A DNA stretch of 64,000 bases from an uncultured Bacteroidota bacterium (GCA_964602985.1 CAZRTJ010000005.1:73198-137197); one strand, 5' to 3'. Numbered from the stretch's first letter, positions 14,641 to 45,823 are shown. Numbers and translations: made by a program. Notes: a model not told the origin generated them from the letters alone.

Positions 14641-15072
14641 TCATCGACTTTGCTCAACTGAGTCTAACCTCTGACGAATGTCATCTGGAAGTGGGGTTTT
14701 TAAGTTGGTCCTGTAGTCATAGATCACGATCACTCCCTCACCTTCCGCGACGATCCCACCCAGATTCTCACTGGCGATTGCATAATTCATGATAAATCGG
14801 TCGTTTAGGATATTGCTCGTTCTCGCACCGACCTTCACACGGTCAGGATATCGAAGAGGCTTGCGGAATTTACAGCTGGTGAAACCCAGAATCGGTCCGA
14901 TCCCCGTTTCCTGCATGTATTCCCAAAATCCCATTTTCTGGAAGTACAACATCCGGGCGCTTTCGAAATAACGAAAGTAGACGATGTTGTTCACGTGACC
15001 AAGGGCGTCCATTTCGCCCCACGCGACGGGCGTCTCCAGTACGACTGGAAATTCCGACAGCATATTTCCCAT
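14641..15072 (-). CDS. Acyl-CoA thioesterase, hotdog fold (4HBT/YbgC-like)
   Basis: GHVNNIVYFRYFESARMLYF motif. The start ATG overlaps the upstream gene's TGA (ATGA coupling). The ORF-track N-terminal extension is basic junk. Confidence 0.7.
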   Translation of the reverse strand: MGNMLSEFPVVLETPVAWGEMDALGHVNNIVYFRYFESARMLYFQKMGFWEYMQETGIGPILGFTSCKFRKPLRYPDRVKVGARTSNILNDRFIMNYAIASENLGGIVAEGEGVIVIYDYRTNLKTPLPDDIRQRLDSVEQSR

Positions 15073-16844: not shown

Positions 16845-16977
16845 GAGGTCTCCGGGGTTGGAAAATTCGGTGCTAATGTACATCCTGCGTACGGAAATAC
16901 AACAAAAAATCCCTTTGCCCCGTGGAAGGGAATTTGTTACCGTCCCTTAGCGCGGAAATCATGGAACGAAAAACCTT

Positions 16978-30728: not shown

Positions 30729-32801
30729 TCATCGAAGCTTCAGCGCTCCGGACTCCACGGCCGCATCCAGCAAACGGGTCACGTCATCCAGGGTAACGGA
30801 TCCATAATACCATTCTCCCTCACTGATCGACTCCGCACGGACGGCTTTGTAAATTTCGTAATACGATCGTTTTCCGTCGACAAAATTAAAGACCTCCTGC
30901 CTCATGATCGGATGCAACTTGGTTTCGACCGCGAGACGCTGACGAGCGGCGAAGTAGTCTTTCAAGGAGCTCGAATTCGACGGGATCTTGCGCGCGGCTA
31001 GCTCCTCCTCTTTCGTCGGTTTCCAGGGCTGATTGCTCGCACGACGGATAAAGACCAGCGCATCGTCATGTTGCTTTTGGAGATGCGCACGCACATCCGC
31101 GATTCGCTTATTGAAATCGCGGTCATTGACCGAAAATACCTGCGTGGACTCGATGGCCCGGAGACCGCGTTGCAGTGCCTGTTCCACGAGTAACTCCGCG
31201 TCCCGGATCGAGGCGGGATTTCGCACGATCATCTGAAGCGCGGTCTGCACGTCTCGACTGAAATGACGCGTGGCCTGTCCGTGGGTCACGGCCAGGATCA
31301 TGGGAGCCTGTGTCCCATCCGCGCGTCCGAGGACGTACGCGAGCGAGGCGATGATAAATGCGTTTCGCTCCAACTGCGTCGCGTCGATCTGCCACAGATC
31401 GTCGTCCGACGAATGAATGTACGAGTCATCCCAGTTGATCAAAGCCACAGCCGGCACCCCGATAATACCCTCGACGAAACACATGTTATCGGATGATCCA
31501 AAGTACGGAACGAAGGCGGCCGTGTATCCTTCCCGCGTACCCCGCGTCGCATAGATCGGCCTAGTGAACGGGCGCGGAAAGCCTCCCGAACGACTGGCGG
31601 CCAGAAAGGCCGTGTTCGTTTGGATCACATACATCCCGATGTCTTCGAAAAGCGCATCCAGATAGGAGCGTCGGCTGTGCGGCGCGTAAATCAGATGCTG
31701 CACACGACTCCCGGCGGACAGACGAGCGCCCACCATATCCTGGTGGAGATTGACGAGGAATTTCTTCGGTTCATCCGGATGCTCTTTGAACCACTCGTAT
31801 TCCGAATAGATTTCGTCGGTCCACCAAAATCGGATGTCGCGCAACGGGCGCTGCATTTTGCCCTCCTCGATCAGTTTCTTCATCGTGCGGCCGATCTCGA
31901 GGATATTTCCGCAGCCGCTGCCGTCGTCATTGGCGGAACCTTGTTCCTCCTGGAGGTGCGCGGTCAGGACAATCTGTTGGTCATGGTATTTTGTGCCACG
32001 GATCCACGCTTCGACAAATCCCGTTCGTCCGGGAGTGGCCGAAACTTCTGTTTCGATTCTGGCGCGCACGACCACTCGCCCCCCGCGGACCTTTTTCCCC
32101 ATGGCAAAAAAGTCTTTCGTTTCGTCGCTGTGCAGAAATTCCCGAAGGGTGTTCCCAAGTCGCGGGGAAATAGAAAAGGCAAACGTGGGTCGAGTGGAGT
32201 CGTACGGGATGCGTGTCCACGCTATCTGGTCCGGAAAATCCAACGGGGAGCGACCCTCGCTGGTTTCATACGAGATGACGCCGATGGCCCCTTGTTTCCA
32301 TACCGCCCGCCGAACCGCGCCGAATGCGCTCCGGCTGGTCAGTACGATCTTGCCGCGGAGGTCTGTGTCCATCCGGTTCCCGGCCTCTTCATCTCCGATC
32401 CACACCACTTCCGCCGTGGTATCGGCGCTGGAACTGCCATCTGCGAGGATCGTCGCATGATCGCCCAGGTCGGCGAGCTTCACCTCCATCGGTTCGACCA
32501 TCCACAATTCGGCTCGGCGCGCCGTGTAGTTGGGATGATTGAGTCTTTGTTCGATGAACTGTACGTCTTCGAGTCCGGCGGATTTGGCGGACTCCATGAT
32601 GTAGTCGGCGGCCTTGAAATATCCGTCCATGCCGGAATCTCGATGCCAACGGGACAGCACGCGAATGTGTTCAAACGAACGATCGCCGGAGAGTTCATTC
32701 ACCAGCATGTTGATTTCGTCGTTGTTGAGAAGTGCGGTCGACTGGGCCCACAGTCCCGCCGACAAGGACAGCCACAAACAAAGGCATGAGAGGAAGCGCA
32801 T
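30729..32801 (-). CDS. M28-family zinc peptidase with PA domain
   Basis: Signal peptide; AHLQEEQGSANDDGSGCG zinc-ligand region typical of M28; PA-domain-like insert. Confidence 0.8.
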   Translation of the reverse strand: MRFLSCLCLWLSLSAGLWAQSTALLNNDEINMLVNELSGDRSFEHIRVLSRWHRDSGMDGYFKAADYIMESAKSAGLEDVQFIEQRLNHPNYTARRAELWMVEPMEVKLADLGDHATILADGSSSADTTAEVVWIGDEEAGNRMDTDLRGKIVLTSRSAFGAVRRAVWKQGAIGVISYETSEGRSPLDFPDQIAWTRIPYDSTRPTFAFSISPRLGNTLREFLHSDETKDFFAMGKKVRGGRVVVRARIETEVSATPGRTGFVEAWIRGTKYHDQQIVLTAHLQEEQGSANDDGSGCGNILEIGRTMKKLIEEGKMQRPLRDIRFWWTDEIYSEYEWFKEHPDEPKKFLVNLHQDMVGARLSAGSRVQHLIYAPHSRRSYLDALFEDIGMYVIQTNTAFLAASRSGGFPRPFTRPIYATRGTREGYTAAFVPYFGSSDNMCFVEGIIGVPAVALINWDDSYIHSSDDDLWQIDATQLERNAFIIASLAYVLGRADGTQAPMILAVTHGQATRHFSRDVQTALQMIVRNPASIRDAELLVEQALQRGLRAIESTQVFSVNDRDFNKRIADVRAHLQKQHDDALVFIRRASNQPWKPTKEEELAARKIPSNSSSLKDYFAARQRLAVETKLHPIMRQEVFNFVDGKRSYYEIYKAVRAESISEGEWYYGSVTLDDVTRLLDAAVESGALKLR

Positions 32802-33552: not shown

Positions 33553-33614
33553 ACTTGACCTCGAGGGTTAGGATTTCGTCGATATGATGAAAATTGGGTT
33601 ATGACATTCTTGTT

Positions 33615-35327
33615 TCATCCGGCCACTTTTTTTACACGATATACGGCGATCGGCTGGTTGTATGTTTTCTCCAAAAAGTCCTCAGAGATCTTTTCGAATC
33701 GCAGGGACAGCCCGTAAAATTCAAGGCAGTATCGCTGCAGCAGGTCATTGTAATCGGGAGAGGACGCCAAGAGAAGTCTGGATTCGCTCCGTGCGGCGGC
33801 ACGCATGACATCCCCCAACGACGCACGACCCGAGAGGCGTTCTAGTCGGTCGCGAACGTAAGAATACCGTGTAGTCCAGCCCGAGCAAACGGTCACAGAG
33901 GTCTCGGGAGAATCCCAAAGAGACTTTCCGAAGACAGGGAACCCTGTCCACAGGTGCATCGCGTGGCCAATGAAAAGCAGATCAGCGCCTGGGTATTCGT
34001 TCTGCAAGAGCTGTAGCGTTTGCATGTTCACCTGGGCGCGTGATTTCAGGAAGGTCCGCTGCTGCGTCTGTCGCCAAGACGCGACCAGCAGAGTCGATCC
34101 CAGGATTGCCATGGCGAGTGCTCGCCCCAGGCGAGGAAAACGGGTGTGAGCCCGCGGACGGATCATGAAGAAGTGTCCCAATGTGTAAAGGACGATGGCG
34201 GGCTCCGCGACCCGATTTCGCATGCGAAGAAACACTTCGACTGTGCAAAGCAATATCCAGAATCCAACGTGATACGATGCATAAACCCCCGAGTGTTTCC
34301 AACGCCCTGTCTCGCCGCGAATACGGATCCAAAACATCCCCAGGAAAAGCACATTCAACCCAAGCACCAACATGTTGTTCTTGACCAACAGGCGAATCTG
34401 GCGAAAGAGAGAGTGCCCAATCGACTGCCACGCAATCGTCGGAACGCTCTCATCGATCCTCTGCTGCCATCCAGATAAGATTTCAGCCGTCAGAACATCG
34501 CGATCCCACATCACACCCTTAACCACCGACTCCTCGATCAGTTTGCTCCTCAGATCCTTTCCGATGGGATCTCTCGGTTGTACCGCATAATCGTTGATCG
34601 CGACAAGTGTCCGGTGATCCGTGGTGGAAATGGCGCGATCCAGCGGGAGCCATTGCAGGCTGAGGGACAGGACGTATAGGACGACTCCTGCCGGAATCAC
34701 CCGCCACGATGTGCGCACCCAATTACCCAAAATGACACTTCTGCAGACGGTCGCAAGAGCGATGATGAGGTATGCAAGCAGGACCGATTCCGGTCGGACC
34801 AGGAGAACGACGAAGACCAACCCCCATTGGGCGTATACACCAGGACCCCGGGCCTTCCACAAGAAGAGAATGGCGAATGCACTACCTGCGGTCAGGATGC
34901 AGACTCGTGTAAAGTTTAACAACACGACCGAGTTACCTGAAGCCAAGGTAGCCAGCACCAGCAGACCGAGCGCTTGCTGCCAGAAGGGAAATCGACTCTT
35001 GGTGGACATCAGAAAGACGTACGCGACATTTGCCAATCCGGAGGCTAGCATGGCATAGCAAAAAAGACCATACCAGGGAATTCCGGGAAGCATCTGATAC
35101 AGCCTGGCCATCACCTCGCCGACACCGTAAAACCAAAAACCGGTGCTTCCGACGGGTCGATCTAGAATGGCCCCACGCATCATGAGCTCAAACAGCGGAT
35201 CGTCCTGTGTTTCGAAATACAATCCGACCAGTGCACGGATCAGAACGATAACGACTACGGCCAGCGCAAACATCTGCACCCATGGCAGGCGAACGCCCAG
35301 AAACACTCCTTGCTCCGAACGCTTCAC
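33615..35327 (-). CDS. Large polytopic membrane protein of unknown function; last gene of the glycosylation-like operon
   Basis: More than 10 predicted TM segments. Its start overlaps the stop of the upstream gene by 4 nt. No recognisable family. Confidence 0.55.
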   Translation of the reverse strand: MKRSEQGVFLGVRLPWVQMFALAVVVIVLIRALVGLYFETQDDPLFELMMRGAILDRPVGSTGFWFYGVGEVMARLYQMLPGIPWYGLFCYAMLASGLANVAYVFLMSTKSRFPFWQQALGLLVLATLASGNSVVLLNFTRVCILTAGSAFAILFLWKARGPGVYAQWGLVFVVLLVRPESVLLAYLIIALATVCRSVILGNWVRTSWRVIPAGVVLYVLSLSLQWLPLDRAISTTDHRTLVAINDYAVQPRDPIGKDLRSKLIEESVVKGVMWDRDVLTAEILSGWQQRIDESVPTIAWQSIGHSLFRQIRLLVKNNMLVLGLNVLFLGMFWIRIRGETGRWKHSGVYASYHVGFWILLCTVEVFLRMRNRVAEPAIVLYTLGHFFMIRPRAHTRFPRLGRALAMAILGSTLLVASWRQTQQRTFLKSRAQVNMQTLQLLQNEYPGADLLFIGHAMHLWTGFPVFGKSLWDSPETSVTVCSGWTTRYSYVRDRLERLSGRASLGDVMRAAARSESRLLLASSPDYNDLLQRYCLEFYGLSLRFEKISEDFLEKTYNQPIAVYRVKKVAG

Positions 35328-37348
35328 TTCCGCCTCAGGATTTGAATGCCGCTGTCCAAAAAGGCGGGCTCCAGCATGGTCTGCCAGTCAAAATGCAGTG
35401 AATCGGTCGATCTCAGGTAGATATACTCGATGTCGTAATTCACGAGGATGGCCTGGGCGCTGTCCAAAGAGCGCGTGTCGTAAAACGTGTGAACATCGCG
35501 GCGCACTCGCGACAGGCGCTCCATGTAGGGTTTGTCCTTTTCAGCGAAAGCAAAAACATAGGCCACGCCTTCGGTGACAACGGGTTTTCTCGAAAAGACT
35601 TGCACAGCCATATACGATTCGTCACCCGGCTCAGAGAGATCGTAGTATTTCGTGAGAATGCGCCCCTGCCCCGGAGCGGTGCGAAGAAATTCAAAGCTCT
35701 TCATCGTCGCGCGGTCCAGGATCAGGCGGGTGCCCGATGCACCGTTGAGTCCGACGACTGCAAACGACCAGACGCCGGATAACATCAAGAGCAGGGAGAC
35801 ACCGGCCCAACAACGAGGCACCCATCCCTTCCGAGAAAAAAACGAAGAGAGTCGCTCGACGGAGTAGATATTCAAGATGAAGATGATTAAAAGAAAAAAC
35901 CACATCGAATCGTGTTTACGCAATTCGTTGGCCGTGAGAACGAATGCTCCCATACCGCCAAGAATGCTGAAAAGAAGAAATGTGTGGCCATCCGGTTGAT
36001 GAGCGATATTGCGCAATCTCATCCGGGAAATGAAATAGGACAGACCCAGCCAGCGGAAGTGAAGCAGGCCGAGGTAGTAAACAAGGAGGGTCAGAACAAA
36101 CCATCCGACGCCCTTCATCGACTGGGGAAATCCATGTTGAACCACTTCGGCACGGAGACTTTCACTGATCAAATGAGAGCGAACGCCAAAGTTTAGTGGA
36201 AAGAACCATTCGGAAAAGCGAACACCGTTGCGAGCCTCTGATGCAGAGTCCCAGAAGATAGGTATGCTGAGAATCACGACCCATCCGGCAAGCAACAGCA
36301 TGTGACGGCGCCGGAATCGAACTACTTGCAGAACCGCGACCACGCATAACGCCGACACACCGACAAGAAAGGCCGTAATCTTTGCCTTGATCATGAAAAC
36401 CCAGCCGATCAAGCACAGGAAGAACCAGAGTTTGGCGGGCTGTCGATCATAGAGAATCGTGGTTCCGCACAGCCCGCAGAATAGTCCCGTAGAAAAAAGA
36501 TAAGAGGGATTGTGAAAGAGCTGAAACTGCGTGATGATCGGGGTCCACACCGACAGAAAAGTCGGATACCCGGATCCGAACCACGCTTCGCCTTCCACCA
36601 CCACTCCACGAACCCACAAAATCAGCGCCGAAGGATCGAAACAGAACAATGTCACAAAAACGGCACCGAGCGCAATGCGGTGGCGGTTCCAAAGTAGTCG
36701 GGTCAAACCGTACACATGAATCGCCAGCATCATCATGCAAAGCGGAACAAAAAAATAAACGTACAGAACAAAATGGTTGGTCACACCAGCGGACGATGAA
36801 AACAAGTGAATAAAGAGATTGGCAAAATAGTGGTAATGACTCCGATCCGCAGGAACGGCATGAATCGTCTGAGGAAGCACGTCATAGTCCAAGTCCGCGA
36901 CGATTGTCAGATGGTGCATCACCTCGGTTGCAAACAGGTCGTAGGCCTCCAGCCGGTCTCCTGTTAAGCCGTTCCGGAATAGATAAGGCGTGATTCCCAC
37001 AAAGAACGCAAGAATCAACACGCCAAAGACTGCGGACCGGAAATGTACCAGCTTCCAGAAGAAGCCTCCAAAAATCGCAAACGTTCTGTTCGTGCGACAT
37101 TGAATGAGAACAATCGTCAGAACGACACCCGGCACACCCACCACGCACAACAGCGCCGCCACCGGCGACGGCAAGAAAAACCGGAGGATCCAATACAGTG
37201 TGGTGGAACCCACGACGGCAATCGTGAGTGACACGGACAAGATCGTGCCGGCCGGAACATCCAGATTTCTGGTCAGGTACACACATGCAGCCAGGCAACA
37301 AGCCGTCAGGAACAGAAAGAAGACATAAGGTAGGATGGACTCAGCCAT
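35324..37348 (-). CDS. Polytopic membrane protein with ~200-aa C-terminal soluble domain; paralogue of 38620-40560; putative GT-C-type glycosyltransferase
   Basis: Shares with its paralogue EVMHHL, Y(H/Y)FFANxFI, YVYFFxP, QFQxxNNPSYL and KAKITxFL. Start chosen at MAESILPYVFF, which couples to the small upstream ORF. Confidence 0.6.
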   Translation of the reverse strand: MAESILPYVFFLFLTACCLAACVYLTRNLDVPAGTILSVSLTIAVVGSTTLYWILRFFLPSPVAALLCVVGVPGVVLTIVLIQCRTNRTFAIFGGFFWKLVHFRSAVFGVLILAFFVGITPYLFRNGLTGDRLEAYDLFATEVMHHLTIVADLDYDVLPQTIHAVPADRSHYHYFANLFIHLFSSSAGVTNHFVLYVYFFVPLCMMMLAIHVYGLTRLLWNRHRIALGAVFVTLFCFDPSALILWVRGVVVEGEAWFGSGYPTFLSVWTPIITQFQLFHNPSYLFSTGLFCGLCGTTILYDRQPAKLWFFLCLIGWVFMIKAKITAFLVGVSALCVVAVLQVVRFRRRHMLLLAGWVVILSIPIFWDSASEARNGVRFSEWFFPLNFGVRSHLISESLRAEVVQHGFPQSMKGVGWFVLTLLVYYLGLLHFRWLGLSYFISRMRLRNIAHQPDGHTFLLFSILGGMGAFVLTANELRKHDSMWFFLLIIFILNIYSVERLSSFFSRKGWVPRCWAGVSLLLMLSGVWSFAVVGLNGASGTRLILDRATMKSFEFLRTAPGQGRILTKYYDLSEPGDESYMAVQVFSRKPVVTEGVAYVFAFAEKDKPYMERLSRVRRDVHTFYDTRSLDSAQAILVNYDIEYIYLRSTDSLHFDWQTMLEPAFLDSGIQILRRK

Positions 37349-37637
37349 GAAGGTTGGATCTTGTGATATGTCCGGCTTGTCGCAATCCCGTAAGACCAAT
37401 CGCGGAGACGATGCCCGCACCGGCAATGCCGGCGAGTAGGCCTGTCAGGGATCCCGCCAGAGACCCGGCCAACGCACCAGCCACCAGCCAGCACAAAGCG
37501 CCGAGCGTTAACATGTGAAGTGTCCGGCGTGAGGGCGAAACAACGAGCAGGACCACTCCCACCATGCAGTACAAAACGACACCCAGGACAACACAAGTCA
37601 CCCATACCCCATCCGCCGTCAGATACTTTCCAATCAC
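37341..37637 (-). CDS. Small two-TM glycine-zipper membrane protein
   Basis: GTG start overlapping the upstream stop. AGALAGSLAGSLTGLLAGIAGAGIVSAIGLTG is a GxxxG zipper. Weak; could be a frame artefact. Confidence 0.4.
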   Translation of the reverse strand: MIGKYLTADGVWVTCVVLGVVLYCMVGVVLLVVSPSRRTLHMLTLGALCWLVAGALAGSLAGSLTGLLAGIAGAGIVSAIGLTGLRQAGHITRSNLHG

Positions 37638-38623
37638 TTCGACACCGACAGTATTTTCCTGATCAGGTCCGCATCGTTGGGCAGCAGGCCCGCCTCAGTC
37701 AGCCGTGATACCAGGATCGCCCAATTTTTGTCTTTGGAAAAAATCTCCTTGAAAATCGGAAGAGATTCATCCAGACGCTTCATGTTCACCAACGAAACGG
37801 CGTACCAAAATTTCATTTCCAGATTGTCCGGAAACATCTTCTGTGCGGCCAGGTATTCTGCGAGCGCCTGTTCTTCGTTGTGATTTTCCACGGCCAGATC
37901 TCCGGCGTTCATGTGCTCGTAGGCTTCGTGTACTCGGAGGAGTCGGCGCAATTCCCGCAGCGGTTCGGCATGATCCTCAACGCGAAGTTCCATCACGCGA
38001 TCGGCCCACGGCCGGCCCGTCGAGCGACTCTTGACAATCAGGATCGCCGCGGATTGTTTTCCGCGGATATCTCCTCCTGCTCCCTCTGCGGCCTCCAAGG
38101 CTCGCATCAGGCGTTCGGCCAGCGGACCGTTTGCGGATTCGTACGCCTGCGACATCGCGCCCCAAATTCTGTCATTGAGCATCAGATTTGCTTGGACCGC
38201 GTACCCGCGTCCAACGATATGCCCGGCCGATGCAATGCAATTCCTCCCCGTGTGTACGGCCACATTCCCCTGTGCATCCACCATCGCGACCTGCCGAACG
38301 TCGCGCCCCGGATCCCCCGCCACCAGCGATTCCAGCGCCTGATTTGCGGTTTTGCCTGCTCGCATCAACTCCAATCCCAGCTTGCCGTACGAAGGATCGA
38401 CAAACGACTGAGTCGCGACGGCGCCCACTCCCGCTTCCGCCCAGGTGACCAGCGATCCCACAGAGAACCAGTGCGACTGGACGGCCACTCCCATTTCCCC
38501 GGTCACGGAGTCCCTGGCAACGATCGAGTATGTGTGAATGGGACGGAGGGAACTTTGAGCGAGCAAGTCGCAGGTGAGAGCGATCGTCAAACAGAACACA
38601 CGCATAGGAAGTCCTTTCGTCAT
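37634..38623 (-). CDS. Secreted DUF1028-family (Ntn-hydrolase-like) protein
   Basis: Signal peptide, then TYSIVARD..., the characteristic start of DUF1028 proteins. ATGA overlap with the upstream gene. Confidence 0.7.
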   Translation of the reverse strand: MTKGLPMRVFCLTIALTCDLLAQSSLRPIHTYSIVARDSVTGEMGVAVQSHWFSVGSLVTWAEAGVGAVATQSFVDPSYGKLGLELMRAGKTANQALESLVAGDPGRDVRQVAMVDAQGNVAVHTGRNCIASAGHIVGRGYAVQANLMLNDRIWGAMSQAYESANGPLAERLMRALEAAEGAGGDIRGKQSAAILIVKSRSTGRPWADRVMELRVEDHAEPLRELRRLLRVHEAYEHMNAGDLAVENHNEEQALAEYLAAQKMFPDNLEMKFWYAVSLVNMKRLDESLPIFKEIFSKDKNWAILVSRLTEAGLLPNDADLIRKILSVSK

Positions 38624-40560
38624 GGTCTAATCTCATACAGTCGAACGGTCGGACCGGCATACCTCATCGACCACGTCGACAGCGGTTGAAAATGCAGCGG
38701 AGCATCCGCCGTTTCCATCACAAGTGAAACGTCGTATTTTTTCAAAATAGCTGCTGCGCCGGCGCTGTCCTGCGTTGCAAAAAAATAATCTGCGTCTTCA
38801 CGGGCCTCCTTCAGCACACGAATTTGGTCGCCAGACAAGAGCGGCTCATAGTACGTGGATTGTTCGGCCACCAGCCGTTTTTCCGAATACACCCCGTTCA
38901 GAATGTTCGGCATGGTAGAGTCTGTGTGAAAAAGGAATCGTCCGGTGGACTCGTATGTGCGCGCCGCACCCAGGGCCTGCATATGGTCTGCGGAATACGT
39001 GTACGAGCCGCGTCTGACGCTCTTGCGCAGAACCGGCACCGCAAAGGTCAGCATCGACGATATCATGAGCAGCGCCCCACCCGCAAGCACCCATCTGCGA
39101 CCGCTGAGTTGCCGCCACCGCCGCACGGCATACGCCGACAGAATGGGCATGAGGCCCAAATAGAACCACATAGAATCGAACACCACAAGCTGATTAACAA
39201 TCAGTACAAACGCGCCCAGACCCGCCAAAATAGAGACCAGGCTGAGTCGATGCGGCGAATCGGAAAATAGCATACGCAGGATGAATCGCCAATCCGTCCG
39301 AAGGAACGCCAATGCGCGAAATCCGAGCAATCCTGCGTGCCACAGCGGAAATAGAATCACAAATTTCGTCATCTGCATGGCGTCGGTGATCACGCCGCGT
39401 TGGCGTAACTCCTGAATGGCCGCCGCAGACAACAACCCGAATTTCTGTGCAAATTCAGCCACGAAGAATCCGTTTGAGAATTGAACCTCATGATGTCCGT
39501 ACGATCCGGTCAGTTGAAGAATTCCAAAAAAAAGTGTGACGAGTCCGGCCAGGGTCATCGTGACTACCTGCCTTCTTCTCCACATGTCCACGCCCGCCAC
39601 CCACAACAATCCGGCAAATGCAGGAAGAAACGTAGTGATCTTTGCCTTCAACAAGACCAACCAGAGAATGAGCGTGACCGCAAAGACAAATGCGGAACGG
39701 TTCCTTTGCATCTGCCAGGTTGACAAGAACACGGCTGGAAGCAACGCGATGGAAGTAAGGTAAGAAGGATTGTTGTACTGCTGAAAAAACGTAATCACAG
39801 GATACCAAATCGACCAAGCCATCATCTTGTAGGAATTCATCCACACGAACAGACTTGAAACATCATACACCAGCCAGACAACCAGTACGGTCCAAAATGC
39901 CACCCTCATGTCTCTCCACAACGCCACACAAAACGCTGCTGAATTGACACCGAGAAGGAGCAGGAAGACAGGAGTGAAAAAGTACACGTACGCATACACC
40001 TTGTCCAGGGCAGGAAGCGAGTAACTGAACGCGCTGATAAAGTAGTTCGCGAAGAAGTGATACTCCGATCGATCATACTGCGTGACATCCATGGTCACAG
40101 GCCACGATTGCACGTTGATCTGGGTCACCAGGGCCAAATGATGCATGACCTCTTTCGCCACAATGTCCACCAGCCGCAGGTTGCCAGAGTCGTCATAACC
40201 ATTTTGTCCGATGTAAAAGCCGGCGATGAGGAAGAATGTCAGGGCAGCCAGGACGAATGGCAAACACTGCCGAAGAAATCTCCCCGCAAACACTTCCAAC
40301 AGTGCGCGTCGTTTGCGGAAAGCGCTCGCCGCAGAAATGACTGTCAGCAAACCCAACATCCCCACTACGATCCAGCGCGGACAATAGGTAATTCGAAGAA
40401 CAAAATAGACCACGACAATTGCGACTGTCGCAAGCGTCAGGCTGAGCGCCAGGTGTTCAGCGCGGCCTCCCTTCCATCGACCTCGCAGAAATGCGACGAT
40501 TCCAAGAAACCAAAGACCCAGCACCAGATAACAAACGCCTACCCAGAACCACACCGACAT
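38620..40560 (-). CDS. Polytopic membrane protein with C-terminal soluble domain; paralogue of 35324-37348; putative GT-C-type glycosyltransferase
   Basis: Start at MSVWFWVGV, overlapping the GT2 stop (TGATG). Conserved blocks are shared with its paralogue. The ORF-track N-terminus (46 aa, Ala/Gly/Asp-rich) is rejected. Confidence 0.6.
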   Translation of the reverse strand: MSVWFWVGVCYLVLGLWFLGIVAFLRGRWKGGRAEHLALSLTLATVAIVVVYFVLRITYCPRWIVVGMLGLLTVISAASAFRKRRALLEVFAGRFLRQCLPFVLAALTFFLIAGFYIGQNGYDDSGNLRLVDIVAKEVMHHLALVTQINVQSWPVTMDVTQYDRSEYHFFANYFISAFSYSLPALDKVYAYVYFFTPVFLLLLGVNSAAFCVALWRDMRVAFWTVLVVWLVYDVSSLFVWMNSYKMMAWSIWYPVITFFQQYNNPSYLTSIALLPAVFLSTWQMQRNRSAFVFAVTLILWLVLLKAKITTFLPAFAGLLWVAGVDMWRRRQVVTMTLAGLVTLFFGILQLTGSYGHHEVQFSNGFFVAEFAQKFGLLSAAAIQELRQRGVITDAMQMTKFVILFPLWHAGLLGFRALAFLRTDWRFILRMLFSDSPHRLSLVSILAGLGAFVLIVNQLVVFDSMWFYLGLMPILSAYAVRRWRQLSGRRWVLAGGALLMISSMLTFAVPVLRKSVRRGSYTYSADHMQALGAARTYESTGRFLFHTDSTMPNILNGVYSEKRLVAEQSTYYEPLLSGDQIRVLKEAREDADYFFATQDSAGAAAILKKYDVSLVMETADAPLHFQPLSTWSMRYAGPTVRLYEIRP

Positions 40561-41495
40561 CACCGGACTTCGTCGATGATGTACGGGGGTCGGCGACGCA
40601 CCTGATCCAGGGCACGCCACAGATACTCTCCAATCACGCCAAGCATCAGCATCTGAAGCCCCGACAAGAGCAGGATCAACACCATCAGCGGCGCCCACCC
40701 TTCAAAAGGCACGTTGCCAAACAACCGGTTGTACACGATCACCAAGGCATAGACAAATCCACACACGGCGGTGATCAATCCCGTCACCGACATAACCCGC
40801 AATGGCACATACGAATACCCCATCACACCGTCCAGCAGGTACTTCACCTTCATGCCAAACCTCCAGCGGGACTTGCCGTACGGTCGATCCAGCCGCTTAT
40901 ACGGAATCATCTTTCTCTTGAATCCGCTCCAAAGAATCTGGCCCTGAAAAAAGGGATTGGACTCGGGATTATCCAGCATCATGCGCACGACACGCTCTCC
41001 CAGAAGCATATAATCAAAACCGCCCGCGGGCATGTCCGGAAAGCTCAGCCTTCGCATCAGCATATAGAATACTCTTGATGTCCACCGCCGAAACACCGTC
41101 TCCTCCCGATCCGCGCGCGAACAAATCACCACGTCGTATCCCTCTTCGAAGTGACACTGCAGCATTTGCACAATCAACTCCGGCGGATCCTGCAAATCCG
41201 CCGAAATAGTCACGACGCATTTGCCCCTCGCATGCGCAAATCCGGCCATCAGCGCCGAGACCTGTCCGAAATTCCTCGTGAAGCGAATCACCGTGACCCA
41301 ATCCGGATGCTCGTTCTTAATCTCCAGAATCCTGGAATACGACTGATCCCCCGACCCGTCATCGATCAGTACAATCTGACAGGACCGCGAGGGCTGGAGG
41401 GAAATCACCTCACGGACGATCTTGTCGAAGGTTAACCGAATCGACTCTTCGTTATAATAGACGGGAATGATGATGGAGTAATCGACTTTTTCCAC
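40560..41495 (-). CDS. Family-2 glycosyltransferase of the polyprenyl-phosphate sugar transferase type (ArnC/GtrB/DPM1-like) with C-terminal TM helices
   Basis: YSIIIPVYNEE, DDGSGD, SADLQDPPE, and two C-terminal TM helices, which is the typical undecaprenyl-phosphate GT2 layout. Confidence 0.85.
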   Translation of the reverse strand: MEKVDYSIIIPVYYNEESIRLTFDKIVREVISLQPSRSCQIVLIDDGSGDQSYSRILEIKNEHPDWVTVIRFTRNFGQVSALMAGFAHARGKCVVTISADLQDPPELIVQMLQCHFEEGYDVVICSRADREETVFRRWTSRVFYMLMRRLSFPDMPAGGFDYMLLGERVVRMMLDNPESNPFFQGQILWSGFKRKMIPYKRLDRPYGKSRWRFGMKVKYLLDGVMGYSYVPLRVMSVTGLITAVCGFVYALVIVYNRLFGNVPFEGWAPLMVLILLLSGLQMLMLGVIGEYLWRALDQVRRRPPYIIDEVR

Positions 41496-41500
41496 GGCTC

Positions 41501-42637
41501 TCAGGCGTTCTTGCGATTCTTCATCGACCCGATCATTTCGCAGATCGCATCGACGTGAGGGAGCGAAAGATTGCCGTACATGGGAAGACAGAGAACTTGC
41601 TTCGCCACGCGCTCCGCCACCGGTAATCGACCGGGCGCGGCAGACGGCAATTCCCGATACGGTGGAAAGTGACTGATCAACGGATAAAAGTAGCGGCGTG
41701 AATACACGTTGTTCGTTTTGAGTCGATCGTACACGGCGTCCCGATCGGCTCCAAAGATCGCGGGATCGATGAGAATCGGAAAGTAGGAATGATTGTGCGA
41801 CACCTTGGGGAGATCGCCGAGGACGCGCACACCATCCAGTCCGGACAGATTCTCCCGGTACCGGGCCGCCACAGCTCGTCGACGATCCACTTCGCCGCGA
41901 AATCTCTCCATCTGCAAGAGACCCATGATCGCCTGAAATTCGTTCATCTTGGCATTAATGCCCACACTGACAACCGACGTCTCACCTGCGAATCCAAAGT
42001 TTTTCAGATAATCGATCCGTTGCTTGAGTTTTTCGTCCCCATGTACAATCGCCCCGCCCTCAAATGTCTGGAACACTTTCGTCGCATGGAAACTCAGAAT
42101 GCTCATATCGCCGTGGCGGAGTATGGACTTCCCGTCCACTGTCACCCCGAACGCGTGCGCGGCATCGTACAGGACTCGCAGTCCATAGATGTCGGCGATC
42201 CTTTGAATCTCTTCCACCCGGCACGGATTTCCGTACACATGCACCGGCAGGATTCCCGTCGTTTGATTGGTGATCAGGGATTCCACCTTCGTGGCGTCCA
42301 GGTTAAACGTCTGCTCTTCAATATCGCAGAATACCGGAGTGATCCCGTTCCAATGAAGGGAATGCGTGGTGGCCACGAAGCTGAACGGCGTGGTAATCAC
42401 CTCCCCCGTCATCCGCAACGCCTTCAGGCCAAGAAGGAGCGCCAACGTCCCATTGCTGAACAGATTCAGATACGGTACGCCGAGAAATTCAAGGAGTTTC
42501 TCCTCCAGTTGAACGTGATACGCGCCGTTGTTGGTGAGGATCTTGGACTTCCACAGTGTCTCCAGATGCGGAAGGACGGACTCCAACGGCGGAAGATCCG
42601 GTTCCGTGACATAAATCGGATGGTCGAACTTTGGCAT
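41501..42637 (-). CDS. DegT/DnrJ/EryC1/StrS-family PLP-dependent sugar aminotransferase
   Basis: Family hallmarks including the SFHATK lysine region. Start at MPKFDHPIYVTEP; the upstream 20 aa in the ORF track are unlikely to be translated. Confidence 0.8.
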   Translation of the reverse strand: MPKFDHPIYVTEPDLPPLESVLPHLETLWKSKILTNNGAYHVQLEEKLLEFLGVPYLNLFSNGTLALLLGLKALRMTGEVITTPFSFVATTHSLHWNGITPVFCDIEEQTFNLDATKVESLITNQTTGILPVHVYGNPCRVEEIQRIADIYGLRVLYDAAHAFGVTVDGKSILRHGDMSILSFHATKVFQTFEGGAIVHGDEKLKQRIDYLKNFGFAGETSVVSVGINAKMNEFQAIMGLLQMERFRGEVDRRRAVAARYRENLSGLDGVRVLGDLPKVSHNHSYFPILIDPAIFGADRDAVYDRLKTNNVYSRRYFYPLISHFPPYRELPSAAPGRLPVAERVAKQVLCLPMYGNLSLPHVDAICEMIGSMKNRKNA

Positions 42638-42814
42638 GCGTGATTGAACAGCGATTGAAACTTGCGTAGAGTAGGAAATTTTTCCGCCGAGTTCCAATGA
42701 AAAGTGCCGACCCGGTCTGCGACGAGATTGCTGGAAGCGGTGTACACGGTCTGACCTGAAGCGGCTGGTCTTCAGCGAACAGGGCCCACACCGCCAGCCT
42801 GAACGATGGAACTG

Positions 42815-45800
42815 CTAAAAATCCGCGCCAAACCAGAATTGAAAGAAGATTCCCTTCGACCAGCGCCGGTATTCACGCAACGTCTCCTCGTCCAGCCGGC
42901 CGCCAAAACCCAGGTCCCCGGTTTCCTTCAACTTCGTCGCGATAAATCGATCCCGATTGCCCGGCAGTCTAATGCCGAACACCTCTGCGTCGCGTGCGTC
43001 AAACATTTTTCCGAAATCAAATCGCAGGACAATAAATCCCAGCATGTTCACTCGAAACCCCGTCCCCACGCTCCCGATCAATCCGTCGAAATTGACATGA
43101 TCGACCACAACCGCTCCATCCGTAATCTGCGACCCCCACGCACTGCCGATATCCATGAACGCCGCGCCACGGATTCCGCGAAAGCCCAGTCCGCCAAACG
43201 GCAATTTCAAACTGATCACATCGACGAGTGGAAATCGAAGTTCCTGATTCACGACAAAGAACCGAGAGCCCGGCAGATTCCATCGTGGATATCCGCGCAG
43301 GTCCCAACTGCCGCCGAGAATGAAATTCTGCGGGTTCTTCCCCTCGTTCCACTGCACCATCGACCGCATCGCATACGTCGAACGGCTCGTGAGCCGAACA
43401 TACTTTCGATAATCCAGGATGACCGTGTAGTAATTCTGCTGCGATCGTTGAACGTCGCTCGTATATCCGCCGGAAACGGTGAAGCGATTCCCATCGATCG
43501 GCCCGGTGATCCCCCACAGCGCGTTGTCGTACGTGTAGCCGCCGAAGTTGCTCAGGATCAAGCCGTCCACGGGCAACACCTGACCGAACACGCTTTCCCG
43601 CCGATACTTGCTGAAATTCAACGACGACTCCAGCCGCTGGAAACGCGAGATCGGATAGACCACCTGGAGAAATCCGCCGAATCGATTTTGATCGACTTGT
43701 GCGATGTCGCCCACGTCGTCGATCTCGATAAAATCACCGCGGAAACGATAAAATCCGTACGCGAAATTGACCCGCTTCCCCAAATCCACTTTTGTCAGGA
43801 CAAGATTCCAATTGGTCAGCAGTTGAGACGTCGTTCGGGAGGTGTTAAAGACTAGGAGATAGTACTGCTGATCACCGAGCACGTCGGTCACTCCGACGAG
43901 ACCGCCGCCGCCATTCCCAAAAACCGGATCGACGTGAAAGGAACCCTGCACAAAGTCGAGGCCGTAGCGCTTGGAGTAGGGCCGTGCGGCTACACCTTCC
44001 GCCGCCACACGGGGCGTGGACCACAAGGTTTTCGCGGCAAGGGTCTCTACGTTCGCCGGTTGCGTGGCTTCGGCCTTGGCGCGGGCATTCGGCAACCGCC
44101 GAATTTGAAATCCGAATTTTTCAAACGTCGTCAGGATGATGTCCCCGTTGCGCGTCCACACCGGATCGAATCCAGCCGCCGTCAGTCGGACCAGTTCGCG
44201 CCCACGAAACGCGCTCAGCGAATCTCCCGCCTCGGCCGCATCGACAAAGTTCTTGTCGCCAGTGACAAACGGCAACACCCACAGGTCCGTCGGCTCCCCC
44301 GGTCGGTTCGACGTATACGCCAGCCATCGCCCGTCGCGCGACCAGGAGGGCGCGTCATCCCGCGTCCGACCCGCCGTCAAAGCAAACATCTTCATCGTGC
44401 CGACATCGCATAGATAGAGATTGTACGCACCCATCAGACCTTCTTCTGTACGATCCGACGAAAAGGCGATCCATCGACCGTCCGGACTCCACGCGGGCTC
44501 CTTGTCGTCGTACATATCGTTGGTTAGGCGGGTGAGACGCCCGTCTTCGGAATCGCCGGTCACTTCGAGAATATACAGGTCCGAATTGCCGCTCATCGCC
44601 AGCCCCGAGAACACAATCCTCTTGCAGTCCGGCGACCAGTTGGGCGAGGACAATCCGACCAGATCCTTATAGGAGTACCGATGCGTGACGGTCTTGCGGT
44701 TCACGTCGTACACATGCAGGACATCCTTCTCGCCGCTCTTGGTCACAAAGGCCAATTCACCCCTGGCATTGATGTCAATCTTGCTCTTGAAGAAATGAAA
44801 CGTTTCAAAATCTTCGGAGCGCTCGCCTTTGATGACGATTTCCTCCTTCTTCGTGTCCAGTCGATTGCGATAGATGTTCGTATATCCGTCGCGATTGGCA
44901 ACATAGAAGACCTCCTCGATGCCGTCGTGTTCCCAGTACGCCGGCTTCACGTGAAAACCTGCCGGACTGATTTTTTCCGTGATCGCCCCGGGTTCTTCGC
45001 GATTGGCCAGCGTCGGGAAGTATTTCTTTTTCAACCACTGCATCCAGCGTTCCGTCAATTCCTCATACGACACGCCGAGCGACAGGGCGACGACTTTTTC
45101 AAACGACTCGGTCTTCCACAGGTTGTCCAGGATCAACATAACTTTTTCGGAACCGAACGATTCGGAGACAAACTGGAGGAGATTCTCGCTCAACTTGTAC
45201 ATGTAGTACGTCCCCTGCACCGTCCAGAAATTCTGCACGGGCACGACGGTCCCATTGATCGTTGCATCGCGCATGACCATTTCCGCCTGGAAGTCCGGTT
45301 GTCCGCTCCAGTGTTCGGCGATTCCCTCGGTAAACCACAGGGGCGCGCCGGGATGGTTCAGCTTTCGATGCTCGGAGAGTATGCGCTCCATTTTGTACGT
45401 GGCAAATACGTGCACCAGTTCGTGCCGAAGCACGCGTCGAAACGCGTGAATCGATCCATCGCTTGGCAGTACGACGCGCCCTTTGAAGAACTCGAAGAAT
45501 CCGCCGACGCCCTCCGGAATCTCAAACGGCGACACATTCGTCTGCTGAAAATGCAGGTGCGAGCTGTAGACGATCATGGGCACCTTGCTCTTGAGCGAGT
45601 AGTTGAACAGATTTTGTAACTCCGCGTACTGCTCCTCGGCGAATCCCGCCGCCCGCTCCGCCAGTTCCTTCATTTCCGGATAATAATAGATCTCGAAATG
45701 CTCCGTCTCGAGCACCTGCCAGTGGAATCGCGTGTAATTGACCTTGTTCGTACCGAAGTAGTTGTCGTAATACTGCCCGTGCAACGCTGTGGTCAGCCAG

Positions 45801-45823
45801 ATCGCCCACATCCACACTCTCAT
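42815..45823 (-). CDS. Outer-membrane protein: N-terminal HExxH zinc-peptidase-like domain, TolB-like (PD40) beta-propeller repeats, C-terminal Omp85/D15-like beta-barrel
   Basis: Signal peptide; HELVHVF...EGIAEHW gluzincin-like motif; PD40 repeats (KEPAWSPDGRWIAFSSDR; DDAPSWSRDGRWLAYTSNR); C-terminal region with VLRFDFG and a terminal F. Confidence 0.75.
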   Translation of the reverse strand: MRVWMWAIWLTTALHGQYYDNYFGTNKVNYTRFHWQVLETEHFEIYYYPEMKELAERAAGFAEEQYAELQNLFNYSLKSKVPMIVYSSHLHFQQTNVSPFEIPEGVGGFFEFFKGRVVLPSDGSIHAFRRVLRHELVHVFATYKMERILSEHRKLNHPGAPLWFTEGIAEHWSGQPDFQAEMVMRDATINGTVVPVQNFWTVQGTYYMYKLSENLLQFVSESFGSEKVMLILDNLWKTESFEKVVALSLGVSYEELTERWMQWLKKKYFPTLANREEPGAITEKISPAGFHVKPAYWEHDGIEEVFYVANRDGYTNIYRNRLDTKKEEIVIKGERSEDFETFHFFKSKIDINARGELAFVTKSGEKDVLHVYDVNRKTVTHRYSYKDLVGLSSPNWSPDCKRIVFSGLAMSGNSDLYILEVTGDSEDGRLTRLTNDMYDDKEPAWSPDGRWIAFSSDRTEEGLMGAYNLYLCDVGTMKMFALTAGRTRDDAPSWSRDGRWLAYTSNRPGEPTDLWVLPFVTGDKNFVDAAEAGDSLSAFRGRELVRLTAAGFDPVWTRNGDIILTTFEKFGFQIRRLPNARAKAEATQPANVETLAAKTLWSTPRVAAEGVAARPYSKRYGLDFVQGSFHVDPVFGNGGGGLVGVTDVLGDQQYYLLVFNTSRTTSQLLTNWNLVLTKVDLGKRVNFAYGFYRFRGDFIEIDDVGDIAQVDQNRFGGFLQVVYPISRFQRLESSLNFSKYRRESVFGQVLPVDGLILSNFGGYTYDNALWGITGPIDGNRFTVSGGYTSDVQRSQQNYYTVILDYRKYVRLTSRSTYAMRSMVQWNEGKNPQNFILGGSWDLRGYPRWNLPGSRFFVVNQELRFPLVDVISLKLPFGGLGFRGIRGAAFMDIGSAWGSQITDGAVVVDHVNFDGLIGSVGTGFRVNMLGFIVLRFDFGKMFDARDAEVFGIRLPGNRDRFIATKLKETGDLGFGGRLDEETLREYRRWSKGIFFQFWFGADF

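Follow-up and report, generated by a model that had tools for sequence, protein, structure and literature searches.

A rare family of predicted GT-C-fold membrane proteins in a seven-gene row resembling a periplasmic glycosylation system

In a 64,000-nt stretch of DNA from an uncultured Bacteroidota bacterium (GCA_964602985.1, CAZRTJ010000005.1:73198-137197; hereafter the window), seven genes on the minus strand form a row that looks, from sequence, like a lipid-linked-sugar, periplasmic glycosylation system. Two of their products, A and B, are diverged paralogues from a rare and unannotated family of membrane proteins with a predicted GT-C fold. In the reading that we favor, with a probability of roughly 0.7, A and B are glycosyltransferases that resemble oligosaccharyltransferases (OSTs) and are fed by sugar linked to undecaprenyl phosphate (Und-P); two genes between them, for a DUF1028 protein and a small peptide (Z), would have been present beforehand, and B, Z and a further membrane protein (C) can be exchanged as a block. 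The paralogy, fold, rarity, linkage and cassette replacement are shown below; the donor, its flipping, the catalytic residues and the acceptor we infer.

Gene layout

The row begins with a sugar aminotransferase of the DegT/DnrJ/EryC1 family (DegT; 41501..42697, Pfam PF01041, E 5.6e-95), followed by a GT2 polyprenyl-phosphate glycosyltransferase of the GtrB/ArnC/PgfS type (40560..41495), which was assigned by PDB and NCBIfam matches and has two C-terminal transmembrane (TM) helices. The GT2 stop codon overlaps the start of A (38620..40560), a 646-aa GT-C-fold membrane protein with an AglB-like C-terminal domain predicted to be periplasmic. Next come a DUF1028 and TPR protein with an Ntn-hydrolase fold and a signal-peptide-like N-terminus (37634..38623; Pfam PF06267, E 1.6e-72) and Z, a glycine-rich peptide of 98 aa with three TM segments (37341..37637). 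Directly downstream of these are B (35324..37348; 674 aa), which belongs to the GT-C family of A, and C (33615..35327; 570 aa), a membrane protein of a second unannotated family; DegT, GT2 and A lie directly upstream of the same pair. Every junction from DegT to C is abutting or overlapping (ATGA, GTGA or TGATG, the last being that of GT2 and A). ATGA and GTGA overlaps link A, DUF1028, Z and B, and Z is translationally coupled to DUF1028 by a GTGA overlap.

The initial annotation had placed A and B, with the DUF1028 gene and a small glycine-rich peptide between them, exactly where we find them. It made no mention of DegT, the GtrB/ArnC-type GT2, C or the strain variability of B and C. Scans for sigma-70 promoters and terminators gave results at or below shuffle expectation. 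Composition lends no support to the idea that A, B and C are recent foreign DNA, their GC (0.52-0.55) and GC3 (0.62-0.64) being near the flank values.

Paralogy of A and B

Alignment of the two proteins identifies them as true, diverged paralogues: BLASTP with composition-based statistics aligns them over 623 aa at 32% identity and 47% positives (E 2e-67). Smith-Waterman alignment scores 618, against 58.7 +/- 14.4 when B is shuffled in 20-residue windows, a control that preserves local hydrophobicity (z = 39). Thus, the similarity is positional rather than compositional, and hydrophobic composition is ruled out as its source. This disposes of a doubt attached to the paralogy when it was proposed, namely that the shared blocks might merely reflect composition.

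Each of the five blocks has a single copy in A and in B, and their order is the same in both: EVMHHL (A137/B142), YH(F/Y)FAN(Y/L)FI (A167/B172), YVYFF.P (A191/B196), FQ(Q/L)(Y/F)(N/H)NPSYL (A259/B275) and KAKIT(T/A)FL (A305/B321). The second had been misread as Y(H/Y)FF; the variable position is the third, giving YH(F/Y)F. The KAKIT block can also be detected in the DNA, as a 40-nt direct repeat that is 75% identical. B is 29-44% identical to the other members of the family alignment (A4) and keeps every invariant residue; A likewise retains them all, and B is the nearer of the two to the family consensus.

Rarity and predicted fold

The A/B family is extremely rare. An exhaustive HMMER search found 18 representatives at E<1e-30 among 1.84 billion, and the family size is put at about 18-46 representatives. 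A/B-type genes occur at 2 loci in 185,579 species genomes; the scans of GTDB genomes and JGI metagenomes contributed just 3 loci. Neither A nor B has a Pfam match at E<=0.1, and A, B and 24 relatives match no Pfam or NCBIfam family. In particular, the 24 family members show no match to the Pfam families STT3 or YfhO at E<=1, and membership of PMT_2 or PMT, which would be expected of an ArnT-type protein, was not found for A and B. Sequence-only searches of the PDB returned no GT-C match except a marginal one to the C-terminal domain of AglB-S2 (E 0.012 with a family profile).

The family is placed by its predicted structure. The model of A is polytopic and contains the GT-C helical core, and its nearest structural relatives are the OST catalytic subunits AglB, STT3 and PglB, at global TM-scores of 0.40-0.45 for this predicted model and at 8-12% sequence identity. 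The match to PIG-U scores far lower than those to the enzymes.

Topology and conserved residues

The model of A has 14 membrane helices, with a long loop after helix 4 that is preceded by three short-looped helices; the distribution of K and R predicts that the N-terminus is outside. OSTs, by comparison, have 13 TM helices, an inside N-terminus and a long EL1 that comes straight after TM1. The long loop of A (residues 118-186), which contains the EVMHHL and YH blocks, has 6.4 D/E versus 2.2 K/R; on the other face of the membrane, the short loops are rich in K and R and predicted to be cytoplasmic. The loop with the two blocks is accordingly modelled as extracytoplasmic (periplasmic), which agrees with the side of the membrane proposed in the initial annotation; following helix 4, however, it is not the first such loop, as had been supposed. 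The acidic pair noted there before EVMHHL does exist (YDDSGN in A, GD-RLE in B), but a conserved or catalytic role is not borne out: of 16 close family members, 9 have D at A123 and 6 have D or E at A124. The glutamate of EVMHHL itself (A-E137, B-E142) is E in 16 of 16 close members and D or E in all 38 of a wider set, in which Y167 of A is kept in 37 and H168 in 36. This fits the GT-C superfamily, whose members have a conserved acid in a long loop outside the cytoplasm, close to where the conserved module begins.

Most of the invariant residues of the family, placed by hand on the predicted topology, fall on its periplasmic side. The putative active site would comprise E137, H141, Y167, H168, D233, Q260, N264, K305, K307, D462, E566 and R587 (A numbering), with K305 and K307 of the KAKIT block as the likely phosphate binder and E566 and R587 contributed by the C-terminal domain. 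These catalytic assignments are predictions from conservation and modelled topology only.

Both proteins do end in a soluble domain, although at about 135 aa (A 512-646) it is smaller than the 150-200 aa first estimated. It is predicted to be an extracytoplasmic alpha/beta globular domain, as in OSTs, and is homologous to the globular domain of AglB. Its layout is OST-like: the first strand closes with aromatic-x-D and is followed by 'GKPVVxEG' and, further on, by 'RxD...FF..T....A..IL.KY.V.YIYL'. The WWDYG motif is absent: at the end of the first strand, the presumed equivalent position reads KYYDL in B, FHTD in A and [YF]-x-D in relatives. In an HMM alignment, the family's 'R-x-D-x-x-x-F-F' falls over 'G-A-D-D-A-A-K-F-F' of 3vu0. 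The aspartate of R-x-D is D in 27 and E in 4 of 38 sequences, and of the OST motif, which is DK or MI, the lysine is not kept.

Donor genes and genomic neighbors

The best NCBIfam match of DegT is the DesI-type 4-aminotransferase TIGR04427 (E 7.5e-97; 325 bits against a 650-bit cutoff), with ArnB at 2e-44. GT2 matches the GtrB structure sll0501 (PDB 5ekp) over its full length at E 2.6e-57 and ArnC structures at E 1.7e-44; in NCBIfam, PgfS is best (2.3e-61; 208 versus 500 bits), followed by ArnC (2.8e-52), both below the equivalog cutoffs.

Co-occurrence was assessed in the eight lineages that carry an A/B-type gene, a sample limited to that number because the genome and metagenome scans gave just three loci. 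Seven of the eight have a GtrB/ArnC-type GT2 next to or close to that gene, and it is this association that suggests a lipid-linked-sugar, periplasmic glycosylation system. A C-type protein is nearby in five of the eight and DegT in four, with DegT orthologues adjoining A/B-type genes in L003 and L005. L008 has an isolated family member, with GT2, DegT and C all absent within 10 kb of it, and the L011 member shares its locus with Wzy_C and GT4 genes. Among the seven proteins of the row, no Pfam or NCBIfam match to a flippase of GtrA, SMR or MATE type was found, and the operon contains neither a 4-keto-sugar dehydratase, nor an N-acyltransferase, nor glycan-assembly glycosyltransferases.

C has no match in Pfam or NCBIfam, nor in the PDB when searched with a profile, and comparison with a PMT_2 protein by hhalign gave no placement. 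Its candidacy as a third A/B paralogue was rejected (BLASTP E>0.3; hhalign probability against the A/B profile 0.8%). The A/B-type genes of L003, L005, L009/L021 and L011 have homologues of C directly upstream, which match the C-family profile at E 1e-57 to 1e-249; L011 has two copies. A conserved [ED]-[TS]-[NQ]-D-[DE] motif, in which D42 is invariant, directly follows TM1, and C may be another lipid-sugar-dependent transferase.

DUF1028 and peptide Z

The DUF1028 assignment is secure (243.9 bits versus a cutoff of 26.2, residues 31-225 covering profile positions 1-193; PDB 2imh at E 3.7e-19), and weak, sub-threshold TPR_16 and TPR_19 matches are also present. The protein has at least 8000 relatives; the best 120 are 66-97% identical, 119 of them at 66-77%, and the named relatives among the matches listed are Bacteroidota or Ignavibacteria. 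Z has no Pfam family match, bar a sub-threshold one to SirB, and aligns with 89-93-aa homologues encoded 3' of DUF1028 in L001, L014 and L017.

The initial annotation had treated DUF1028 and Z as an unexplained part of the unit and called for a co-occurrence check, which does not support that view. Only in the window's own lineage, one of the eight, is DUF1028 near an A/B-type gene. Relatives occur without A, B or C: L014, L015 and L017 have DUF1028, the peptide and TerC in a row, extended by M28 in L014 and L017. In more distant relatives DUF1028 adjoins a PTR2 peptide transporter. From these gene neighborhoods, the two appear to be common resident backbone genes, with DUF1028 co-transcribed in this row, rather than demonstrated or conserved partners of the transferases. 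Lineage-specific recruitment into function may nevertheless have taken place, because in this row they are translationally coupled to A and B. In practice, this removes a false lead: the evidence does not establish DUF1028 as a component of a glycosylation machine.

A strain-variable cassette

Comparison with sister strain L001 defines a strain-variable cassette at 33564..37601 (no strand assigned), which takes in most of Z together with B and C. In place of this segment, L001 has 4152 bp of unrelated DNA encoding counterparts Z', C' and B' in a different gene order. B and B' are 34% identical, and Z, which is inside the cassette from about codon 12 onward, is 51% identical between the strains; elsewhere, the strains are 98-99% identical in DNA. 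A is the copy conserved between strains and B the strain-variable one. The surroundings contain no flanking repeats and no mobile-element signatures. B, C and Z behave like alternative alleles of one exchangeable unit, which is what surface-glycan variation would lead one to expect.

Proposed pathway and known systems

In the pathway we propose, the DegT aminotransferase would produce a nucleotide-linked amino sugar, which the GtrB/ArnC-type GT2 would load onto undecaprenyl phosphate at the cytoplasmic face. A separate protein would flip the lipid-linked sugar, and A, B and perhaps C would transfer it in the periplasm, each to a different envelope site or acceptor. Candidate acceptors are protein, LPS or another surface glycan; that two or three diverged transferases serve different acceptor sites is a reasonable reading.

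Several known systems share parts of this arrangement. In the Arn pathway, the aminotransferase ArnB and the Und-P glycosyltransferase ArnC supply the GT-C enzyme ArnT, which acts on lipid A. The row in the window lacks equivalents of ArnA, ArnD and ArnE/F and has two or three transferases rather than one; its DegT is closer to the DesI type than to ArnB, and A and B have an OST-like C-terminal domain in place of the PMT_2/ArnT sequence signature. Periplasmic 'three-component' glycosylation is recognized by its pairing of a GtrB-type synthase with a GT-C enzyme (PMC11127046). In such systems (GtrA/GtrB/Gtr*; Citrobacter ORF12, GT136; PMC11127046) the two are neighbors, as here, and in serotype conversion the GT-C component is likewise strain-variable; the row differs in having no recognizable GtrA, SMR or MATE flippase and a GT-C sequence family that is undescribed. 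The Streptococcus mutans pgf operon combines PgfS with two GT-C paralogues, PgfM1 and PgfM2 (10.1101/2024.05.05.592596), which act on the extracellular side (10.1101/2024.05.05.592596, PMC5856776). That system (PgfS, PgfM1, PgfE and PgfM2; PMC5856776) resembles the row in placing two GT-C paralogues in one operon and in PgfS being the best NCBIfam match of GT2, short of its cutoff as noted above. However, PgfM1 and PgfM2 are YfhO-family proteins, unlike A and B, and the organism in the present case is diderm, Bacteroidota or Ignavibacteria-like.

Alternative readings

The structural likeness to OSTs (AglB, STT3 and PglB; GT66) raises the question of whether A and B are themselves OSTs, transferring a preassembled glycan en bloc from undecaprenyl pyrophosphate, either to protein through N- or O-linkage or to a different acceptor. 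The top structural matches, the AglB-homologous C-terminal domain with its OST-like motif order, and the L011 member beside Wzy_C and GT4 genes all speak for this, yet we consider it unlikely. A and B lack both the WWDYG motif of OSTs and an STT3 signature. The operon has none of the glycosyltransferases needed for glycan assembly, and the most constant neighbor is a GtrB/ArnC-type monophosphate-sugar synthase rather than an initiating phosphoglycosyltransferase or Wzx. Having an Und-P-monosaccharide synthase as genomic partner suggests single-sugar transfer for A and B, unlike in OSTs. In a further reading, which we also consider unlikely, A and B would be an unrecognized bacterial offshoot of the OSTs that retained the AglB-type acceptor-binding C-terminal domain (YYD and RxD replacing WWDYG and DK) while using an Und-P-linked amino sugar, and exchange of B and C would switch specificity between strains. 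If true, Bacteroidota or Ignavibacteria-like bacteria would have a periplasmic protein glycosyltransferase of a new type.

Other readings concern which proteins take part. All seven genes might form one functional unit, in which DUF1028, as a periplasmic Ntn amidohydrolase, deacylates the lipid-linked amino sugar in the manner of ArnD and Z is a flippase or subunit comparable to ArnE/F or GtrA. The overlaps joining A, DUF1028, Z and B, the signal-like N-terminus of DUF1028, its Thr31 falling on profile position 1 where the Ntn nucleophile is normally found, the lack of another flippase in the operon and the divergence of Z along with the B/C cassette all fit such a unit. We nevertheless regard it as quite unlikely: DUF1028 is missing beside the A/B-type genes of the other seven lineages, its thousands of relatives far outnumber the A/B representatives, it occurs with Z, TerC and M28 where A, B and C are lacking and, in more distant relatives, beside PTR2, and Z matches no flippase family. 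It is very improbable that A, B or both have the GT-C fold without being catalytic, serving instead as a scaffold, a substrate-binding subunit (like PIG-U in GPI transamidase) or a handler of the lipid carrier, given that A and B keep all invariant residues, including the periplasm-facing acidic, His and Lys residues, that enzymes outscore PIG-U as structural matches, and that a lipid-sugar synthase accompanies the family in all but one of the eight lineages.

Implications

GT-C enzymes decorate bacterial envelopes and proteins, affect serotype and susceptibility to phages and antimicrobial peptides, and serve as glycoengineering tools. The A/B family, unseen by Pfam and NCBIfam, joins a generic GT-C core to a C-terminal domain otherwise typical of OSTs. 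The two natural B and C alleles in near-identical strains offer a ready comparison for acceptor identification. If active, A and B would likely give rise to a CAZy GT family of their own, in the way that ORF12 led to GT136, and could show how acceptor domains of the OST type are put to new use with monophosphate-linked donors.

Gene order

The two paralogous membrane proteins, A (38620-40560, 646 aa) and B (35324-37348, 674 aa), lie in a row of seven minus-strand genes, each of which abuts or overlaps the next. The row begins with a DegT-family sugar aminotransferase (41501-42697) and a GtrB/ArnC-type glycosyltransferase, GT2 (40560-41495). A follows, then a DUF1028+TPR protein (37634-38623), a glycine-rich peptide of 98 aa with three TM segments (Z, 37341-37637), B, and finally C (33615-35327), a polytopic protein of 570 aa that was absent from the initial annotation. 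GT2 and A overlap at their stop and start codons (TGATG) and the subsequent junctions are ATGA, GTGA, an 8-nt overlap and GTGA; with such overlaps, the row looks like a single translationally coupled operon. Downstream are TerC and then an M28 peptidase. Directly upstream is a fusion protein of unusual architecture (42815-45823, minus strand; 1002 aa), in which Peptidase_MA_2 is combined with PD40 beta-propeller repeats and an Omp85-type barrel.

Paralogy and fold of A and B

A and B are real paralogues: they are 32% identical across 623 aa (E 2e-67), and their Smith-Waterman score is 618, as compared with 58.7 +/- 14.4 for versions of B shuffled in 20-residue windows. The five sequence blocks from which their kinship was originally proposed each occur once per protein and in identical order. 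Both proteins end in a soluble domain of ~135 aa. Neither BLASTP nor profile-profile comparison relates C to A or B.

An AlphaFold2 model of A, built from a 40-sequence alignment, is confident (pLDDT 91.3, pTM 0.92), and a Foldseek search with it gives nine matches at E<=1e-3, every one an oligosaccharyltransferase (OST): STT3, AglB or PglB (E 1.5e-6 to 7.5e-5). Together, the model and these matches make a GT-C fold for A and B well supported and a specific, distant kinship to the OST lineage likely. The core idea of the initial annotation, a pair of diverged GT-C paralogues, is supported. Membership in the OST family fails at the level of sequence, however. The A/B family gives no match to the STT3 profile and does not retain the Lys of the OST DK motif, and WWDYG is absent: the first strand of the C-terminal domain ends in KYYDL in B, FHTD in A and [YF]-x-D in relatives. 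The helix layout differs as well: the model has 14 helices, three of which, with short loops, precede the long loop.

Topology was assigned from the helices of the A model and a 16-sequence alignment, using K/R counts per short loop. Short loops alternate between K/R-rich (0.7-3.6 per loop) and K/R-poor (0.12), and on this basis the N-terminus, long loop 118-186, loop 352-393 and the C-terminal domain are predicted to be periplasmic; the long loop averages 6.4 D/E versus 2.2 K/R. When the invariant residues are placed by hand on this topology, most fall on the periplasmic side (A numbering: N120, E137, H141, Y167, H168, D233, W240, Q260, N264, P265, K305, K307, D462, W465, E566 and R587). The acidic pair (DD or DxxE) previously proposed as catalytic is predicted to be periplasmic, as had been supposed, but it is not the conserved motif: position 123 is D in 9/16 sequences and position 124 is D/E in 6/16. 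A better candidate for the catalytic acid is E137, the glutamate of EVMHHL, which is E in all 16 close members; across a wider alignment it is D or E in 38/38 sequences, with Y167 retained in 37 and H168 in 36. K305 and K307 are candidate phosphate binders.

Distribution of the family

The A/B family is very rare and unannotated. Neither A, B nor any of 24 family members matches a Pfam or NCBIfam model, and an exhaustive HMMER search of 1.84 billion cluster representatives with an A+B profile yields 46 proteins at E<=1e-3, 18 of them at E<1e-30. A pattern scan of one genome per species (185,579 species) finds two loci, one in a Cyclobacteriaceae MAG and the other in an unclassified bacterium, and a JGI metagenome scan finds one. 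Distant members (E 1e-16 to 1e-8), labelled merely hypothetical, come from Streptosporangium, Kitasatospora and Nonomuraea, so the superfamily extends outside Bacteroidota-like carriers. Three such actinomycete proteins (P0048, P0052 and P0054; E 1e-16 to 7e-9) are 730-800 aa long and have no Pfam match.

A strain-variable cassette

A 127-kb contig from a different sample (L001) aligns collinearly with the window, with DNA identities of 97.8 and 99.3% on the two sides of a cassette at 33564-37601. This segment, covering most of Z plus B and C, is swapped in L001 (12960-17111) for 4152 bp of unrelated DNA whose genes specify these three protein types in another order: Z' (51% identical to Z), C' (24% to C) and B' (34% to B, 28% to A). 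Outside the cassette, A is 99.5% and DUF1028 96.7% identical. Both alleles are present in several independent samples. The cassette is an allelic replacement between near-identical strains; base composition gives no signal of recent foreign origin, and a search for flanking repeats found none. Allelic replacement of the GT-C component, here B, is likewise seen at the serotype-converting glycan-modification loci of Gtr systems (PMC11127046).

DUF1028 and the small peptide

At least 8000 proteins are related to the DUF1028+TPR protein. Of the best 120, 119 are 66-77% identical to it and the remaining one, from the sister strain, is 97% identical; those that are named come from Bacteroidota or Ignavibacteria MAGs. 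The domain has an Ntn-hydrolase fold (2imh, E 3.7e-19), and Thr31 aligns with profile position 1 after a signal-like segment, from which we infer a periplasmic, N-terminally processed hydrolase.

The initial annotation counted DUF1028 and Z as part of the unit, which is not supported. They might have been recruited in this lineage, possibly as a deacylase or flippase subunit, but the loci compared lend this no support: DUF1028 occurs in one of eight independent lineages with an A/B-type gene, the window's own. In the nearest relatives (77% identity; L014, L015 and L017), DUF1028 is followed by a 93-aa Z homologue (4-nt overlap), TerC and an M28 peptidase, which is the window's backbone lacking A ahead of DUF1028 and B and C after Z. 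Upstream, L017 instead carries a divergent NeuB/CMP-sugar cluster, and in more distant relatives DUF1028 lies between HlyIII and a PTR2 peptide transporter. DUF1028 and Z are thus resident genes, flanked by DegT-GT2-A and B-C as accessory modules. Two independent assemblies of a relative, L014 and L015 (position 1-138), both stop 138 bp short of DUF1028 on its upstream side, where the window has DegT-GT2-A; a strain-variable region may have broken the assembly there.

A peptide-scavenging role for the resident hydrolase fits the peptidase-rich surroundings. On the minus strand are an angiotensin-converting-enzyme-like M2 peptidase (15072-16883, E 2e-107), an M1 peptidase of 981 aa with a long C-terminal extension (27737-30682) and an M28 peptidase (30729-32801); an M64 peptidase is found near the corresponding region in L001. 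The neighbourhood also carries TonB/Omp85 genes. Judging by this gene content and by the names of the closest DUF1028 homologues, the window comes from an uncultured bacterium that is Bacteroidota or Ignavibacteria-like. A probable large secreted or surface protein of 2319 aa (7467-14426, minus strand) has Laminin_G_3 at its N-terminus, then a right-handed beta-helix/NosD region, and a FlgD_ig-like domain at its C-terminus.

Putative donor genes, protein C and possible acceptors

Along its whole length, GT2 matches the polyisoprenyl-phosphate glycosyltransferase GtrB (sll0501, 5ekp; E 2.6e-57), and it matches ArnC structures with E near 1e-44; its best NCBIfam matches, PgfS and ArnC, are under equivalog cutoffs. 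The aminotransferase is nearest to DesI-type 4-aminotransferases, also under cutoff. All loci compared were scanned with the A/B and C profiles and the window's GT2, DegT, DUF1028, Z and TerC proteins. Of the eight lineages, seven have a GtrB/ArnC-type GT2 next to or near the A/B-type gene, five have an adjacent C-type protein and four have DegT. The linkage is not universal: in one MAG (L008, 9647-11638) a solitary family member is flanked by Rho and a glucose/sorbosone dehydrogenase gene, and none of GT2, DegT or C-type genes occurs within 10 kb of it.

C is the founding member of a second family of membrane proteins without annotation. Its invariant Asp, within [ED]-[TS]-[NQ]-D-[DE] directly after TM1, may be GT-C-like; further blocks are PWYG, LLNFTRV and RPEG. 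In four other lineages homologues immediately precede A/B-type genes, and L011 carries two of them.

At L005, a PglD-like acetyltransferase sits between the orthologous DegT and GT2, which hints that this organism uses an N-acetylated 4-amino sugar; the window lacks the acetyltransferase gene. L005 (8469-11181) and the equivalents in L009/L021 have two separate DegT/GT2 sets per carrier, the first with GNAT and methyltransferase genes and the second with the PglD-like acetyltransferase or with an epimerase and WbpB/WbpD-like genes. This suggests that, in these carriers, C-type and A/B-type proteins draw on different lipid-linked N-acylated amino-sugar donors.

Periplasmic 'three-component' glycosylation is characterised by the pairing of a lipid-sugar synthase with a GT-C enzyme (PMC11127046). 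This logic is shared by the Arn pathway and by the S. mutans pgf operon, which has two GT-C paralogues (10.1101/2024.05.05.592596). The window's operon contains no recognisable flippase. The comparisons support A and B as members of a rare GT-C family that lacks annotation, has an OST-like C-terminal domain and is linked to a GtrB/ArnC-type lipid-sugar synthase and a sugar aminotransferase. Their acceptor may be a surface glycan or LPS, to which we give a probability of about 0.4; a protein is about as probable or slightly less so, and the remainder falls to other acceptors.
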